DNA from: a virus
Taxonomy: Duplodnaviria > Heunggongvirae > Uroviricota > Caudoviricetes
DNA length: 30,548 nt
IMG/VR virus record: IMGVR_UViG_3300045988_118519
Strand: one strand, 5' to 3'
Part shown: positions 2,248 through 16,582 of the stretch, one piece after another
How the letters are laid out: each line of letters starts with the position of its first letter
Numbering within the stretch: position 1 is the stretch's first letter
The notes under the pieces: generated by a model
What the model was told of the DNA's origin: nothing
Database searches by the model: none
Seen by the model: the letters and a program-made list of their open reading frames with translations, nothing else
Made by a program: the position numbers and the translations under genes

Positions 2248-2774
2248 GTGCGTAACTCCGATAACTCGTTAAAGCGCTCCATAAACATCCCGTAGGCATG
2301 GCTCGGAGCCAGTGGAATAACTTTGAACATTTCTGTTGCCGGGATACCTTCCAGTACTGGCCAGAAAGAGCCATCATCAAGCCCGAGATCGCGGCGTTCG
2401 GTTGCCAGCATGATGAGATCGGCATATTTCACAGGCGTGCTCATAACCGGGGGTAACCCGTATTTCTCACGGATTACGGCGTCTATTTTTTCTTCCATCC
2501 GTTTATAGTCAGGAAGAAGGCGTTTCAGTGGAGCGGGAATATCCTGGCAATACGCTTCTGTTGCATCATGCATTAACGCTTCAAAAGCAAATTCCTGCGG
2601 CACCAGCTGGCTGCAAAGCACCGCATGCTGGGCGACACTGTAGAAGTGTGAAAGATGTCCTGCAAAGCGACAGATATTTGAAAGGGAAACCGCGATATCG
2701 TTAATCACGATGTCGTCTTTATTTATCTTGTCATAATAAAAATGCTTCCCGGAAAAAGTTTTAATAAATGACAT
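2238..2774 (-). CDS. yfdR: HD-domain phosphohydrolase, YfdR-like, 178 aa
   Basis: ATG at 2774 with GGAGAA RBS; H...HD...D motifs (FAGH, ALMHDATEAY, DIP); length equals YfdR (178 aa). Confidence 0.65.
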   Translation of the reverse strand: MSFIKTFSGKHFYYDKINKDDIVINDIAVSLSNICRFAGHLSHFYSVAQHAVLCSQLVPQEFAFEALMHDATEAYCQDIPAPLKRLLPDYKRMEEKIDAVIREKYGLPPVMSTPVKYADLIMLATERRDLGLDDGSFWPVLEGIPATEMFKVIPLAPSHAYGMFMERFNELSELRTCA

Positions 2775-2868
2775 TTCGTTCTCCACTTTATATGCGCTGC
2801 ACCGCGCTGAATTCGGGTAAAAGGAATCCCGCACCATCCGGCGATTATTGAGTTAATTACGTTTCCAT

Positions 2869-2890
2869 AAATGCCCCCGCAGGGGCATTT
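2869..2890. other. Perfect 9-bp inverted repeat AAATGCCCC-cgca-GGGGCATTT between yfdQ-like and yfdR-like genes
   Basis: Read directly; no flanking U-tract on either strand. Confidence 0.5.
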
Positions 2891-2902
2891 GCAGTAATGA
2901 AA

Positions 2903-3727
2903 TCAGGCGGTGAAAGTACCAATAAAGGTTTCTACTTTGCTGTCTTTGAATTTCTCAACAAGCAGATCACGAAATTCGTTAGCCATTTCTTCCTGCACTG
3001 CTTCCAGCTGAATAATGCGCAGAACCAGTACAGGACGATCGCCAGTGATAATGCTGAGGCGTAATTTAAATGGACGTTCTTTCAGACCTTCAAACGGAAC
3101 GCATTTAAATTCAAATGCCACTGGCATAATGTCTTTGGTCTTCGCTTCGACAGACTCCATCAGGGAGCGTTTGCCGCTGAAGTCATTATCTTCAAAATCA
3201 GCGGTCTGGTTTGCTTCAATCGTGATTTTACGGACAGCCGCAGCCGCTTTTGTTGCCTGAATAGCGTCACCATTAGCATCAAAGCCCACAAGGTAGTCGG
3301 CCCAGTCTTCAATCCATTCTGCCAGTGACTTCTGGGAATGACGCTCGCCGTTAACAGACAACAGAGCAGAGAACGGTGCTGTCTTTTTCAGTTTGAGAGT
3401 GGCAGTGTTATCTGCGTGACCTGGCTCATCAATAGTACCCAGGTTAAGCACACTGACGGCACGCATATTATCGGCATCGATAAAGCAGCGGGTGCCTTCA
3501 TCTGCAAGATCTTTAGAATAACGGGTAAAGTCATCGATGCTGGCAGTGGAAAGCGCACCACGGAAACGGAAGCGATTTAAATTAAATTTTTCCAGATCAT
3601 GAATGCGGAAATTCTCAGGCAATGCCACAGCATCGGCACCAATCTTACTGATAATTTCATTAACACCCTGAGCAGAAATAAGAGCATGGATTTGATTAAT
3701 TGCGGTTGCGTCTAAGTTCTGAGACAT
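2903..3727 (-). CDS. yfdQ: DUF2303 protein, YfdQ-like, 274 aa
   Basis: Length equals CPS-53 YfdQ (274 aa); synteny with yfdP/R/S-like genes. Confidence 0.65.
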
Positions 3728-3792
3728 AATAAGTCCTCACTATATAAAGATATTCAGTGATGAGATAAATAATCAGTTAATTAAGAACGATA

Positions 3793-5928: not shown

Positions 5929-6472
5929 GCATCATTGGAAAGTGGAAAAACAACCTGAGTGGTACGTGAAAGCTGTCAGAAAAACTATCGCGGCATTGCC
6001 TGGGGGTTACGCTGAAGCTGCTGACTGGCTGGATGTAACAGAGAACGCTTTATTCAACCGCCTTCGTGCAGATGGCGATCAGATTTTCCCGCTGGGATGG
6101 GCAATGGTTTTACAGCGCGCGGCTGGCACTCACTACATTGCGGATGCTGTCGCACAGTCTGCTGGTGGGGTGTTCGTATCGCTTCCTGAAATTGAGGAAG
6201 TAGAGAACGCCGATATAAACCAGCGCCTGCTGGAAGTCATCGAACAGATCGGGAATTACTCAAAGCAGATTCGTTCGGCAATCGAAGATGGGGTCGTGGA
6301 GCCACACGAGCAGACAGCAATTAATGATGAGTTGTATCTGTCAATTTCGAAGCTCCAGGAGCATGCAGCACTGGTCTACAAAATCTTCTGCGCTCCAGAA
6401 AAGAGTGACGCCCGCGAGTGTGCAGCTCCGGGCGTCGTGGCGTTTTGTGTCTGTGGAGAAACTAACGCATGA
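5921..6472 (+). CDS. CII-like phage regulatory protein (CP76-type), 183 aa
   Basis: GTG start with AGGAGG RBS at 6 nt; position after cro; family assignment from recall. Confidence 0.55.
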   Translation: MGKHHWKVEKQPEWYVKAVRKTIAALPGGYAEAADWLDVTENALFNRLRADGDQIFPLGWAMVLQRAAGTHYIADAVAQSAGGVFVSLPEIEEVENADINQRLLEVIEQIGNYSKQIRSAIEDGVVEPHEQTAINDELYLSISKLQEHAALVYKIFCAPEKSDARECAAPGVVAFCVCGETNA

Positions 6473-6882
6473 ACAGTTTAACGGCAAATAACCGTTTGTC
6501 GCAACAGCTGGTGGTCAGTGTCGCTGAACACCTGTTGTTACGGCATGAATGCAGATTACCAAATCACTTGGCTGTAAGTAACCACAGAGAACTTTACCTG
6601 ACTGTGGGGGGCGAGTTGTGCAGGAACTTAACCGCTGGTTTCGTGACGGAAGAGGGCTTTATGTCCATGTTATTCGTTGGGAGCCAGAAACACAGCGCGT
6701 TATCTATCTTCGCAAAGACTACCCGCATGAGTGCTTTAGTCCTTTGTGGAAATTCAGGCGTGATTTTGTTGAGTGTGAAGGACCACCAGCACATTGATTC
6801 TGCCATTCCGGGACGTTACACTGTTCAGGCACCTTATAAAGCGGGTGCCGGGCGTGGAAACTCGGAATTCACCAAAGCGCAC

Positions 6883-6905
6883 AACCGCGCTCTTGCGGTT
6901 TTTTT
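6883..6905 (+). terminator. Rho-independent terminator-like hairpin AACCGC-gctctt-GCGGTT plus TTTTTTT
   Basis: Read directly; lies inside the long frame that continues into Rha. Confidence 0.5.
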
Positions 6906-7074
6906 GTGTAATGAGCAGCATTACGCCCAAATTATGGTGGGGCGTGCAGGGCCAACTTCGGTTGGGCCGGGTTCTTTGGTGACCGGTATTTCCACCCCTG
7001 TACGTCTCACCACCAATAAGGTCGTGGAAAGCCTTGGTGGTGAGTTATTAAAAATCACCAAAGAGGCTGCCATC

Positions 7075-7620
7075 ATGGCTACGATCCCAACCCTCACTCA
7101 ACCTGAAATTGCCATCGTTGATGGTCAGGCTGTTACTTCATCCCTGGCTGTTGCCAACTTCTTCTCCAAACGTCATGACGATGTACTGAAAAAGATCCGC
7201 ACGCTTGAATGCTCTGCATCATTCACTTCCCGCAATTTTTCGGCGAGTGATTACACCGATTGCACAGGCCGCAAACTACCTTGCTATCAAATAACCCGCG
7301 ACGGCTTTGCGTTTCTTGCTATGGGTTTCACGGGTAAACGTGCTGCCCAGTTCAAAGAGGCATACATCAATGCCTTTAACCAGATGGAGAAACAGCTTTC
7401 AAATCCCTCTGTACTGAGCGACGTTGCACATAACGCCAGCGTTCTCTATTCCTACATTTCATCAATTCATCAGGTCTGGCTGCAGCAGCTTTATCCTATG
7501 TTGGCAAAAGCCGAATCTCCGCTGGCTGTTAGCTTGTATGACTATATTAATGATGCTTCGGCACTGGCCTGCCTCATAAATTTGTCGCTGAACCCTTCAG
7601 AGGTAAGGGGGCGCAAATGA
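7075..7620 (+). CDS. Rha-family phage regulatory protein, 181 aa as called (the frame is open from 6469)
   Basis: IVDGQAVTSSLAVANFFSKRHDDVLKKIRTL matches the Rha N-terminal domain; ATG at 7075 with AGAGG RBS. Confidence 0.7.
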   Translation: MATIPTLTQPEIAIVDGQAVTSSLAVANFFSKRHDDVLKKIRTLECSASFTSRNFSASDYTDCTGRKLPCYQITRDGFAFLAMGFTGKRAAQFKEAYINAFNQMEKQLSNPSVLSDVAHNASVLYSYISSIHQVWLQQLYPMLAKAESPLAVSLYDYINDASALACLINLSLNPSEVRGRK

Positions 7621-12335: not shown

Positions 12336-12352
12336 TTTTGTGGAGAAAGTTG

Positions 12353-12718
12353 ATGCGTGATATTCAAATGGTTCTTGAACGTTGGGGGGCATGGGTGGCA
12401 AATAATCACGAGGATGTCACCTGGTCGTCTATTGCTGCAGGATTTAAAGGACTAATCCCTTCAAAAGTAAAATCCCGCCCGCAATGTTGTGACGATGACG
12501 CGATGATCATTTGTGGGTGCATGGCTCGCCTGAAAAAGAACAACAGCGATTTGCACGATTTATTAGTGGATTATTATGTAGGTGGTATGACGTTTATGGC
12601 GCTTGCCCGTAAACATGGGCGTTCTGATTGCTGGGTTGGGCGTTTATTGCAAAAGGCTGAAGGTGTAGTTGATGGCATGTTAATGATGTTAGAAATTGAG
12701 CTAGAGATGGATCGTTAG
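12353..12718 (+). CDS. Late-gene antiterminator Q-like protein (phage 82-type family), 121 aa
   Basis: ATG at 12353 with GGAGAAAG RBS; position just before the late region; Cys-rich centre; family from recall. Confidence 0.6.
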
Positions 12719-13874: not shown

Positions 13875-14927
13875 ATGAAAAATACTGTAAAAATAAACAG
13901 TGTTGATTTAATCAACGCTGATTGCCTGCATTTTATTCAGTCCCTGCCTGATGATTCCATTGACCTGATTGTTACCGATCCGCCGTACTTCAAGGTGAAA
14001 CCCAACGGCTGGGACAATCAGTGGAAAGGGGACGAAGATTACCTTAAGTGGCTGGACCACTGTCTGGCCCAGTTCTGGCGGGTGTTAAAACCTGCCGGAA
14101 GCCTTTACCTGTTCTGTGGGCATCGCCTGGCATCTGATATTGAGATCATGATGCGTGAACGTTTCAACGTGCTTAACCATATCATCTGGGCGAAGCCGTC
14201 CGGACGTTGGAATGGGTGTAATAAAGAAAGTCTGCGTGCATATTTTCCTGCCACAGAGCGCGTTCTGTTTGCTGAACATTACCAGGGGCCATATCGCGGC
14301 AAAAGTGACGGCTATGCGGCAAAAGAAAGGGAACTCAAACAGCACATAATGGCACCGCTGATTTCGTATTTCAGGGATGCTCGTGCCGAACTGGGTATAA
14401 CGGCAAAACAAATTGCCGAAGCCACAGGTAAGAAAAATATGGTTTCCCACTGGTTTGGTGCCAGTCAGTGGCAGTTGCCGAATGAGGCTGACTACCGGAA
14501 GTTACAGGCACTGTTTTCCCGTATAGCGGCAGAGAAGTTTCAGGAACAACAACTGGAACAACCACACCACCAGCTGGTGGCATCTTATGATTCACTGAAT
14601 CGCAAATATTCTGAATTGCTGGATGAGTTTAAATCTCTCCGGCGCTATTTCTCCGTATCAGTCTCCGTGCCTTATACCGATGTCTGGATGCATAAACCCG
14701 TTCAGTTCTACCCGGGGAAACATCCGTGTGAGAAACCGGCGGATATGCTCAGGCAAATAATCAATGCCAGTAGTCGACCAGGTGATCTGGTTGCTGATTT
14801 TTTTATGGGATCCGGTTCCACAATAAAAGCAGCAATGGCGCTGGGGCGTCGGGCCTTAGGTGTTGAGCTTGAGTCAGAGCGGTTTAACCAGACAGTGAAA
14901 GAGATAAACGAGCTGGTGGGGAAATAA
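13875..14927 (+). CDS. Beta-class DNA methyltransferase (N6-adenine or N4-cytosine), 350 aa
   Basis: Motif IV TDPPYF near N-terminus and motif [10 protein letters not shown] near C-terminus (beta-class order) with a long central insert. Confidence 0.85.
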
Positions 14928-14933
14928 TCTGGT

Positions 14934-14956
14934 GGCCACGTCAGGTGGCCTTTTTA
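14934..14956 (+). terminator. Rho-independent terminator after the methyltransferase gene
   Basis: GGCCAC-gtcag-GTGGCC hairpin followed by TTTTTATTT. Confidence 0.6.
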
Positions 14957-14994: not shown

Positions 14995-15210
14995 ATGAAA
15001 TCCATGGATAAGTTAACAACGGGTGTCGCCTATGGCACCTCAGCAGGTAGTGCCGGGTACTGGTTTTTACAGTTGCTCGATAAAGTCACGCCCTCACAGT
15101 GGGCGGCAATAGGTGTGCTGGGTAGTCTGGTATTTGGCTTGCTGACGTATCTGACAAACCTTTATTTCAAGATTAAAGAAGACAAGCGTAAGGCTGCACG
15201 GGGAGAGTAA
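14995..15210 (+). CDS. S21-type pinholin with dual-start motif, 71 aa
   Basis: [31 protein letters not shown]...[22 protein letters not shown] closely matches phage 21 S21 as I recall it, including MKSM dual start. Confidence 0.85.
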
Positions 15211-15214
15211 TTCA

Positions 15215-15529
15215 ATGACTCAAAACTATGAAGTGATTGTGAAAGGGATCCGCAATTTTGAGAATAAAGTTACGGTAACTTTAGCGTTACGGGACAAAAA
15301 ACGCTTTGACGGTGAAATTTTTGACCTGGACATCTCGCTGGACCGTGTTGAAGGTGCCGCGCTGGAGTTTTATGAGGCAGCAGCCAGAAGGAGCATCAGA
15401 CAGGTCTTCCTGGATGTTGCTGCCGGGTTATGTGAAGGGGACGAGCTGTTGCCAGAAACGCGCCCCTGTTCAAAGGCGCGGTATACCATAAAAATTAACA
15501 GTTCTGATAACTCGATTACGGGTTGTTAG
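15215..15529 (+). CDS. Hypothetical cytoplasmic protein inserted between holin and endolysin, 104 aa
   Basis: ATG with GGGGAGAG RBS; no TM segment; not recognised. Confidence 0.6.
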   Translation: MTQNYEVIVKGIRNFENKVTVTLALRDKKRFDGEIFDLDISLDRVEGAALEFYEAAARRSIRQVFLDVAAGLCEGDELLPETRPCSKARYTIKINSSDNSITGC

Positions 15530-15584
15530 CTTTTTGCAGTTGGCTTTCCAGTATCTTTCATTGGTAGCATCCTGATAAATATCC

Positions 15585-16118
15585 ATGAGCGCAAAAATCA
15601 AATACGGCCTGTCAGCTGCTGTTCTGGCGCTGATTGCTGCAGGCGCGTCTGCTCCTCAAATACTTGACCAGTTTCTGGATGAAAAAGAGGGTAACCACAC
15701 TACGGCATACCGCGATGGTTCCGGTATATGGACCATCTGTCGTGGTGCCACAATGGTGGATGGTAAGCCCGTCATACCGGGAATGAAGCTGTCGAAGGAA
15801 AAATGCGACCAGGTTAACGCTATTGAACGTGATAAGGCGCTGGCATGGGTGGAGCGCAATATTAAAGTACCTCTGACCGAACCACAGAAAGCGGGTATAG
15901 CGTCATTTTGTCCCTATAACATTGGCCCCGGTAAGTGTTTCCCGTCGACGTTTTATAAGCGGCTGAATGCCGGTGATCGTAAGGGCGCATGCGAGGCGAT
16001 TCGCTGGTGGATAAAAGATGGTGGGCGCGATTGCCGCATACGTTCAAATAACTGCTATGGACAGGTTATTCGTCGTGACCAGGAAAGCGCATTAGCCTGT
16101 TGGGGGATAGATCAGTGA
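15585..16118 (+). CDS. SAR endolysin (GH24 lysozyme with signal-anchor-release N-terminus), 177 aa
   Basis: Ala/Gly-rich weakly hydrophobic N-term [15 protein letters not shown]; catalytic E-D-T in [22 protein letters not shown]. Confidence 0.85.
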
Positions 16119-16582
16119 GCAGAGTCGCCGCGATTATTTATGCTCTGGTTATCTGCATCATCGTCTGCCTGTCATGGGCTGTTAATCATTACCGTGATAA
16201 CGCCATTACCTACAAAGCCCAGCGCGACAAAAATGCCAGAGAACTGGAGAAGGCGAACGCCACCATTACTGACATGCAGCAGCGCCAGCGTGCTGCTGAT
16301 GCACTCGATGCTAAATACACGAAGGAGTTAGCTGATGCGAAAGCTGAAAATGATGCTCTTCGGCGCAAGCTTGATAATGGTGGTCGGGTGTTCGTCAAAG
16401 GAAAATGCCCTGTGCCAACCTCAGCCGAAGCCTCCAGCGCCTCCGGCATGGGCAATGATGCCACCGTCGAACTCTCTCCAGTTGCTGGACGAAACGTTCT
16501 CGGTATCCGGGACGGAATTATCCGCGACCAAACAGCACTGAGAACGCTTCAGGAATACATCAGGACGCAATGCCTTCGATGA
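16115..16582 (+). CDS. Rz: Rz i-spanin, 155 aa
   Basis: [44 protein letters not shown] is near-identical to lambda Rz N-terminus; GTG start overlapping endolysin end. Confidence 0.85.
16335..16541 (+). CDS. Rz1: Rz1 o-spanin lipoprotein embedded in the +1 frame of Rz, 68 aa
   Basis: [22 protein letters not shown] lipobox plus Pro-rich [11 protein letters not shown] as in lambda Rz1; AAGGAG RBS. Confidence 0.8.

Follow-up and report, generated by a model that had tools for sequence, protein, structure and literature searches.

We found that the open reading frame (ORF) at positions 15215-15529 of the window, by which we mean the whole 30,548-nucleotide stretch of virus DNA (Caudoviricetes) analysed here, is a real gene under purifying selection and not a chance ORF. 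Taking two points together, we are highly confident that it belongs to the YdfR/DUF1327 family and that lysis, judged by a comparison with related phages, would not need it. The gene is already known, as are its family and its position in the lysis cassette, from the annotation of E. coli K-12 and of thousands of genomes. Newly observed is that its relatives nearly all have a small opposite-strand gene 3' of the DUF1327 gene. With regard to function, we tentatively propose a late cytoplasmic modulator of RNA turnover that may act via RNase E and/or RNA, a reading which we regard as plausible while still short of probable. The features of the region are listed below with their strand.

14995-15210, plus strand: phage-21-type holin gene (S21-like), 71 aa; PF04971 'Bacteriophage P21 holin S' (Phage_holin_2_1), E 2e-35; PHROG holin families
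15200-15207, plus strand: Shine-Dalgarno sequence GGGGAGAG of the DUF1327 ORF, within the last holin codons, 7-9 nt 5' of the ATG
15215-15529, plus strand: YdfR/DUF1327 family gene, from ATG 15215 to TAG 15529, 104 aa, coordinates including the stop codon
15215-15439, plus strand: conserved core domain, residues 1-75, from the AlphaFold2 model and the alignment; the only part common to the 72-76-aa relatives
15440-15526, plus strand: variable C-terminal tail, residues 76-104 (GDELLPETRPCSKARYTIKINSSDNSITGC), from the tail variants; pLDDT 50-59
15526-15570, minus strand: remnant of an opposite-strand 79-aa gene (phrog_21218), last 13 codons and stop (LPMKDTGKPTAKS before the stop), from the DNA alignment with Perceval
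15585-16118, plus strand: endolysin gene, 177 aa, RrrQ type; PF00959 (Phage_lysozyme), E 1e-24; product 93% identical to the Stx2 II R protein
16115-16582, plus strand: Rz i-spanin gene; PF03245, E 1e-29; phrog_13; end of the cassette
16335-16541, plus strand: Rz1 o-spanin ORF embedded in Rz, from the ORF list

We regard the ORF as a real gene because of its Pfam family score and its substitution pattern. Residues 1-96 match PF07041 (DUF1327/YdfR) with an E-value of 2.7e-38 and 130.5 bits against a cut-off of 25, and codons 1-75 give a dN/dS of 0.25-0.31 when compared with diverged homologues (pair dS 0.4-1.5). Several PHROG families are matched as well, phrog_2735 among them (E 7e-54), all of them of unknown function, and RefSeq genes with 100% DNA identity to the ORF are annotated as 'DUF1327 domain-containing protein' or as YdfR family. 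No NCBIfam model matched the ORF. A preliminary description, made from the letters of the sequence, had called the ORF unknown and devoid of a recognisable domain, which the DUF1327 match corrects. Its other statements about the ORF were confirmed: the ORF lies between a holin and an endolysin gene, as seen from the ORF list and the Pfam matches on both sides; it is led by a strong ribosome-binding site (RBS), namely the Shine-Dalgarno sequence listed above; and the 104-aa protein has no membrane segment, its Kyte-Doolittle 19-residue maximum being 0.75, compared with 1.7-1.8 for the holin and the N-terminus of the endolysin. The protein is acidic, with a pI of 5.2.

The flanking genes had been described as those of a pinholin and a SAR endolysin. 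By Pfam, the first is a phage-21-type holin, beginning with MKSM, a dual-start motif, and the protein is 100% identical to the holins of phages cdtI, ev243 and PhiR63_2. For the endolysin, the SAR (signal-anchor-release) assignment stands less firmly: its N-terminus is rich in Ala and Gly and hydrophobic, with a 19-residue maximum of 1.78 at residue 9, and from this hydrophobicity we infer that it may be SAR-like. The ORF starts 4 nt past the holin stop codon, and a 55-nt spacer (15530-15584) separates it from the endolysin gene. A Q antiterminator gene (12338-12718) lies upstream and terminase genes follow 3' of the cassette from 17358; the cassette is part of a lambdoid prophage's late operon. 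In front of the holin gene, after Q, there is a DNA N6/N4 methyltransferase gene (13875-14927), near-identical in phage cdtI. It is followed, just 5' of the holin gene, by a strong terminator-like hairpin, GGCCACGTCAGGTGGCC with a T-run (14934-14950), through which a Q-modified polymerase presumably reads.

The way in which the ORF is joined to the holin gene is conserved. The preliminary description had proposed a survey of the holin/endolysin junction in related prophages, and this survey gave the same left junction, G(G/A)AGAGTA(A/G)-N4-ATG, in 8/8 DUF1327 loci: the Shine-Dalgarno sequence at the 3' end of the holin gene, a gap of 3-4 nt, and the ATG. The ORF is missing at this junction in Stx2 II and cdtI, and in Stx2 II the identical Shine-Dalgarno motif stands directly before the ATG of the R gene, with GGGGAGAGTAAGCTGATG at the junction. 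The endolysin gene of the window is preceded by the conserved sequence ATAAATATCC, without an obvious Shine-Dalgarno sequence. It follows from the same left junction, together with an endolysin gene lacking such a site, that the inserted ORF has captured the RBS which, in ORF-less phages, is used by the endolysin gene. The translation of the endolysin may then depend on coupling or on a non-canonical initiation region. The holin/endolysin junction is hence not only an insertion point; a passenger gene placed there can capture the RBS of the endolysin. The sequence ATAAATATC(C/T)ATG is found 5' of the 177-aa endolysin gene wherever DUF1327 is present, namely at 15560-15587 of the window, in loci L001, L002, L010, L011, L023 and L024, and in K-12. 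In Qin and HannyBb, ATAAATATC(C/T) is part of the DUF1327 coding sequence, and ATGA is the overlap between the two genes.

In consensus scans, no promoter-like site turned up in the stretch from the holin gene to the ORF, and at the end of the ORF there was only a weak hairpin (15504-15529). We considered whether the ORF could be a classic moron, that is an autonomous unit of promoter, gene and terminator, and rejected this for want of an own promoter in these scans, the hairpin being weak and the Shine-Dalgarno sequence lying in the 3' end of the holin gene. Lambdoid morons such as bor, downstream of Rz, are likewise optional inserts between conserved late genes with sharp junctions. However, classic morons come with a promoter and a terminator of their own, and the prophage expresses them, whereas the ORF appears to be a passenger of the late operon that uses the RBS at the holin end.

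The same gene order is known from other prophages. In the Qin prophage of K-12 the annotated order is essQ (holin), ydfR, rrrQ (177-aa lysozyme) and rzpQ/rzoQ, and the order in the window is equal to it. The order holin, DUF1327, endolysin is also present in Perceval, BP-4795, HannyBb and Stx1_499; the window and seven other loci have the conserved junction. By tblastn position, H-19B and many Stx1 and Stx2c phages share this order. The DUF1327 protein of Perceval is 98% identical to that of the window. K-12 YdfR (b1555, P76160) is 64% identical overall and has the equal 4-nt junction between holin and ORF. The two proteins differ in the C-terminal tail, which ends in CSKARYTIKINSSDNSITGC in the window and in YSFKIENPANKHERPHHKYL in K-12. 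Moreover, the ydfR stop overlaps the rrrQ start in Qin, whereas the window has the 55-nt spacer, a relic of a deleted opposite-strand gene.

Using megablast, we found DNA matches to the ORF in 4246 of 5426 complete E. coli genomes, in up to 8 places per genome. DUF1327 is among the commonest E. coli prophage genes without an assigned function. Among the phage records, 438 have this holin type and 101, about a quarter, have a DUF1327 homologue. An exhaustive search by profile through 1.84 billion cluster representatives yielded just 75 proteins, all of one small family, and none of these 75 has a known function. A scan of one genome per species found the gene only in Escherichia and in one contig of a Veillonella metagenome-assembled genome (MAG).

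Several close relatives have the lysis genes without the ORF. In Stx2 II the holin is of the same type (82% identical) and the 177-aa endolysin is 93% identical, yet the two genes are 4 nt apart with no ORF between them. Phage cdtI, which has the methylase gene in common with the window, carries the identical holin gene directly abutting a gene for a 165-aa endolysin; its DNA is near-identical to about 15 nt before the holin stop and then diverges into the 165-aa endolysin gene. The same arrangement, an identical holin directly abutting a 165-aa endolysin, is present in ev243 and PhiR63_2. Since the ORF is missing from relatives whose holin is identical or whose endolysin is 93% identical, lysis very probably does not require it. 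An obligate linkage of the ORF to a given holin or endolysin was looked for and was not found. Outside the Escherichia lysis cassettes, relatives of 72-76 aa sit amid homologues of the lambda tail genes M, L, K, I and J, downstream of a tape-measure gene, or next to holin genes of unrelated type. These distant DUF1327 genes are always co-oriented with late genes. Their location outside lysis cassettes argues against a function specific to phage-21-type holins and endolysins, and for a late accessory function.

A core of about 72 aa is common to all family members. The first structure model, built from a shallow alignment, was poor (pLDDT 62.8), and a model from a deeper alignment was used instead. 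The AlphaFold2 model from the deeper alignment predicts three antiparallel strands at residues 5-14, 18-27 and 33-43 followed by a single long helix at 50-73, with a mean pLDDT per block of 78-93 over residues 1-70. The core is thus predicted to be a beta-beta-beta-alpha domain without a convincing structural relative. A search of the PDB with the protein sequence gave no match, and no informative structural match to the core was found. The remote-homology search and structure prediction that the preliminary description had called for succeeded in revealing the family and the core fold, and did not reveal an informative relative. A dsRBD was tested as a candidate, and neither an alpha-beta-beta-beta-alpha fold nor a match to the dsrm profile was found; the RNase E regulators RraA, RraB and RapZ and phiKZ Dip were tested likewise, and no shared fold or sequence was found.

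Several alternative tails occur in the family; that of the window protein is modelled at low confidence. E. coli members carry unrelated C-terminal tails that bring them to 103-116 aa, or coiled-coil-like extensions that bring them to 161-287 aa, and Pfam found nothing in the extensions of the long variants beyond coiled-coil-like noise. Distant members consist of the core alone (72-76 aa, 24-35% identity), and truncated and frameshifted variants of 84 and 119 aa exist. In one 176-aa protein from the search of representatives (P0179), the DUF1327 core occurs twice in tandem, showing it to be a module in its own right. In the Stx1a phage Stx1_499 (L024), a 263-aa DUF1327 protein is annotated at 2501-3292 on the plus strand, and a 233-aa ORF at 3041-3742 on the minus strand overlaps its 3' end by about 250 nt; probably one of the two gene calls is wrong, or the long form is a fusion.

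Experimental data are available for the K-12 homologue only. In a bacterial two-hybrid (BACTH) analysis, residues 1-72 of K-12 YdfR gave an interaction with RNase G and a stronger one with RNase E constructs that hold the N-terminal catalytic half (PMC13232886). A full-length YdfR fusion with a short linker interacted with one RNase E construct only, and Strep-YdfR co-purified RNase E 1-598 from lysates together with much DNase-resistant nucleic acid (PMC13232886). Overproduction of YdfR was not toxic and changed few transcripts (PMC13232886). Since these data were obtained with overproduced, tagged protein and without a nuclease control for YdfR (PMC13232886, 2026), the contact with RNase E may be bridged by RNA. 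Furthermore, ydfR was reported as a candidate gene for streptomycin survival, with a 3-fold higher MIC (PMC12924614).

Over the RNase E-interacting region of K-12 YdfR, 58 of the 72 residues are identical in the window protein, and for this reason a role in RNA turnover is the best supported mechanism. The association with RNase E and RNA was shown for the K-12 homologue; that the copy in the window has the same activity, and that this matters to the phage, is what we infer. The ORF is an optional late gene, of a kind carried by lambdoid prophages, and its insertion point is precisely the 4-nt junction between holin and endolysin. Because the insert uses the RBS at this junction, its product would come from the Q-dependent late transcript and appear roughly when the holin does. 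This product would be a small, acidic, cytoplasmic protein and would not be part of the lysis machinery. With its beta-beta-beta-alpha core (residues 1-72) it might bind RNase E, at the N-terminal catalytic half, and/or RNA, and could thereby adjust RNA turnover late in infection, e.g. how stable host RNAs or the long late transcript are. A pI of 5.2 is, however, unusual for an RNA binder, no link by sequence or fold to dsRBDs, RraA/RraB, RapZ or Dip was found, and the conserved opposite-strand neighbour is left unaccounted for by a role in RNA turnover.

Phage-encoded modulators of RNase E or of the RNA degradosome include gp0.7 of T7 and Srd of T4. If the K-12 result transfers, the window protein would, like Dip of phiKZ (PMC4980113), be a small phage protein that contacts RNase E. 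Should the tie to RNase E be confirmed, it would be the first RNase E-directed protein of lambdoid phages.

The opposite-strand gene was examined at the distant loci L007, L008, L015-L021 and L026-L036. In 7/7 metagenome and 11/11 IMG/VR loci, an ORF of 70-182 aa is located on the opposite strand 3' of DUF1327, within about 40 nt or with a short overlap. Three Escherichia types have such a partner as well, with lengths of 79 aa (Perceval, positions 46883-47122 of the phage, minus strand), 92 aa (L010) and 88 aa (L011). Coordinates of the partner in six loci are as follows.

L001, 3312-3551, minus strand: opposite-strand partner
L010, 4311-4589, minus strand: opposite-strand partner
L011, 4500-4766, minus strand: opposite-strand partner
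L026, 3249-3548, minus strand: opposite-strand partner
L031, 3247-3531, minus strand: opposite-strand partner
L035, 3224-3511, minus strand: opposite-strand partner

By sequence, at least four types of partner can be told apart, and Pfam contains none of them. Hhalign did not support homology among the types (E 0.03-0.2), which are connected by weak colinear BLAST links only. One partner type has a dN/dS of about 0.1 with saturated synonymous sites and is a real gene. In RefSeq, the Perceval-type and L011-type partners are hypothetical proteins, and relatives of the Perceval type were found in 8 clusters only, all from E. coli. A simple scan found no promoter for the partner gene. The partner resembles a classic moron more than the ORF does.

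The window has lost its partner. The intact partner ORF of Perceval matches phrog_21218 with an E-value of 1.9e-57, and in the alignment with Perceval about 315 bp are missing from the window. What is left reads LPMKDTGKPTAKS before the stop, compared with LPMKDIGKPTETKG before the stop in Perceval, and the overlap of the partner stop with the end of the DUF1327 ORF is precisely that seen in Perceval. The alignment indicates that a deletion of about 315 bp removed the partner gene and left the 55-nt spacer at 15530-15584. Short imperfect repeats, TCCAGAT and TCCTGAT, flank the deleted segment in Perceval. The partner gene is also missing from K-12 Qin and BP-4795.

The pair occupies different slots in the genomes: the holin/endolysin junction, a place between tail genes, a place after the tape-measure gene, or one beside other holin genes. 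Together with the presence of the partner in all metagenome and IMG/VR loci and in Perceval, L010 and L011, with the low dN/dS of one partner type and with the last 13 partner codons retained in the window, this would agree with a mobile cassette of two genes, DUF1327 transcribed with the late operon and the opposite-strand gene 3' of it, whose products act on each other. The late protein might, for example, neutralise or replace a factor that the prophage makes from the opposite strand, and the window copy would be an orphan with its partner deleted. We consider this rather unlikely as the main explanation. The links between the partner types are weak enough to allow repeated independent capture at an insertion hot spot. 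Many intact DUF1327 genes are partnerless, among them those of the window, K-12 Qin and BP-4795, and are still under purifying selection, and the partner showed neither a promoter in the simple scan nor a match to a known defence system. A combination of the pairing with the RNase E data is, to us, quite unlikely: DUF1327 and the opposite-strand gene could form an undescribed mobile two-gene module of temperate phages, in which the target of the late beta-beta-beta-alpha protein would be RNase E or RNA, its partner would oppose or supplement it in the lysogen, and the window would hold the orphaned half. The pairing itself, found across very diverged phages, provides a concrete experimental handle.

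A late accessory role with a target other than RNA turnover would agree with the tight packing of the gene and its co-orientation with the late genes, and with the distant copies among tail-tip genes. The protein might serve in anti-defence or host takeover, be packaged in the virion, or help in assembly. It is small and acidic, like many phage inhibitor proteins, and the variable tails and the 161-287-aa forms suggest a constant domain with exchangeable modules. However, the PADLOC defence models gave no match up to E 0.1 for the ORF, the long variants or the partner proteins, no informative structural match points to such a target, and the sole interaction reported from experiments is that with RNase E. 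We therefore hold such a role to be distinctly unlikely.

The preliminary description had suggested either a regulator of lysis timing or cargo riding the late transcript; of these, cargo fits much better and lysis timing is the poorer fit. As a cytoplasmic regulator, the protein could delay or sharpen lysis by binding to the pinholin's cytoplasmic tail or by acting on the SAR endolysin prior to export. In Escherichia phages the ORF always begins 3-4 nt past the holin stop and precedes the 177-aa endolysin gene (8/8 loci), and in Qin and HannyBb its stop overlaps the endolysin start. There are precedents for soluble lysis regulators. P1 LydB, too, is small and soluble, and its gene comes directly after that of a holin; lydB is annotated as 'LydA antagonist' and overlaps the 3' end of lydA. 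T4 RIII is likewise a small soluble lysis regulator encoded beside a holin gene, and it also touches RNA metabolism (PMC9409239). Homology to LydB was tested by hhalign with the family alignment and rejected (probability 0.1%, E 0.57). What sets the ORF apart from these regulators is that phages sharing the holin and endolysin lack it and that its distant homologues are found away from lysis cassettes, among tail clusters or next to unrelated holin genes. Absence of the ORF from close relatives with normal lysis had been named in the preliminary description as a refutation, and it is absent from Stx2 II, cdtI, ev243 and PhiR63_2. The supplementary tables of the screen by Paradis-Bleau et al. 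(PMC3879167) list the Keio ydfR deletion as envelope-leaky, which could be taken in favour of lysis timing. By our reasoning, the leak may instead be a polar effect, the promoter of the kanamycin-resistance cassette driving the downstream SAR lysozyme gene rrrQ. Overall, a role in lysis timing appears improbable.

It is very improbable that the ORF has no function of its own and is a selfish or decaying insert kept by linkage only, since its optional, mosaic occurrence and the truncated or frameshifted forms of 84 and 119 aa are set against a dN/dS of about 0.25-0.3 over pairs with dS up to about 1.5, a core conserved to 24-35% identity in separate phage lineages, and an intact gene in most E. 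coli genomes.

Two further observations were made. The contig from the one-genome-per-species scan that is labelled as a Veillonella parvula MAG (JAGZPX010000007.1, L013) has a ydfR region of the Qin type, with 65% identity over residues 1-99. Its match to the query is exactly that of the two Escherichia loci L012 and L014, and the contig is most likely a binning contaminant in the MAG. An Rfam scan of the window found no RNA element in or near the ORF. Elsewhere in the window it gave two matches above the gathering score, isrK, an Hfq-binding sRNA (6829-6905, plus strand), and C4 antisense RNA, the immunity RNA of the P1/P7 type (6930-7017, plus strand). Both are located in the 5' part of the ORF at 6469-7620, before its Ash and Rha domains.
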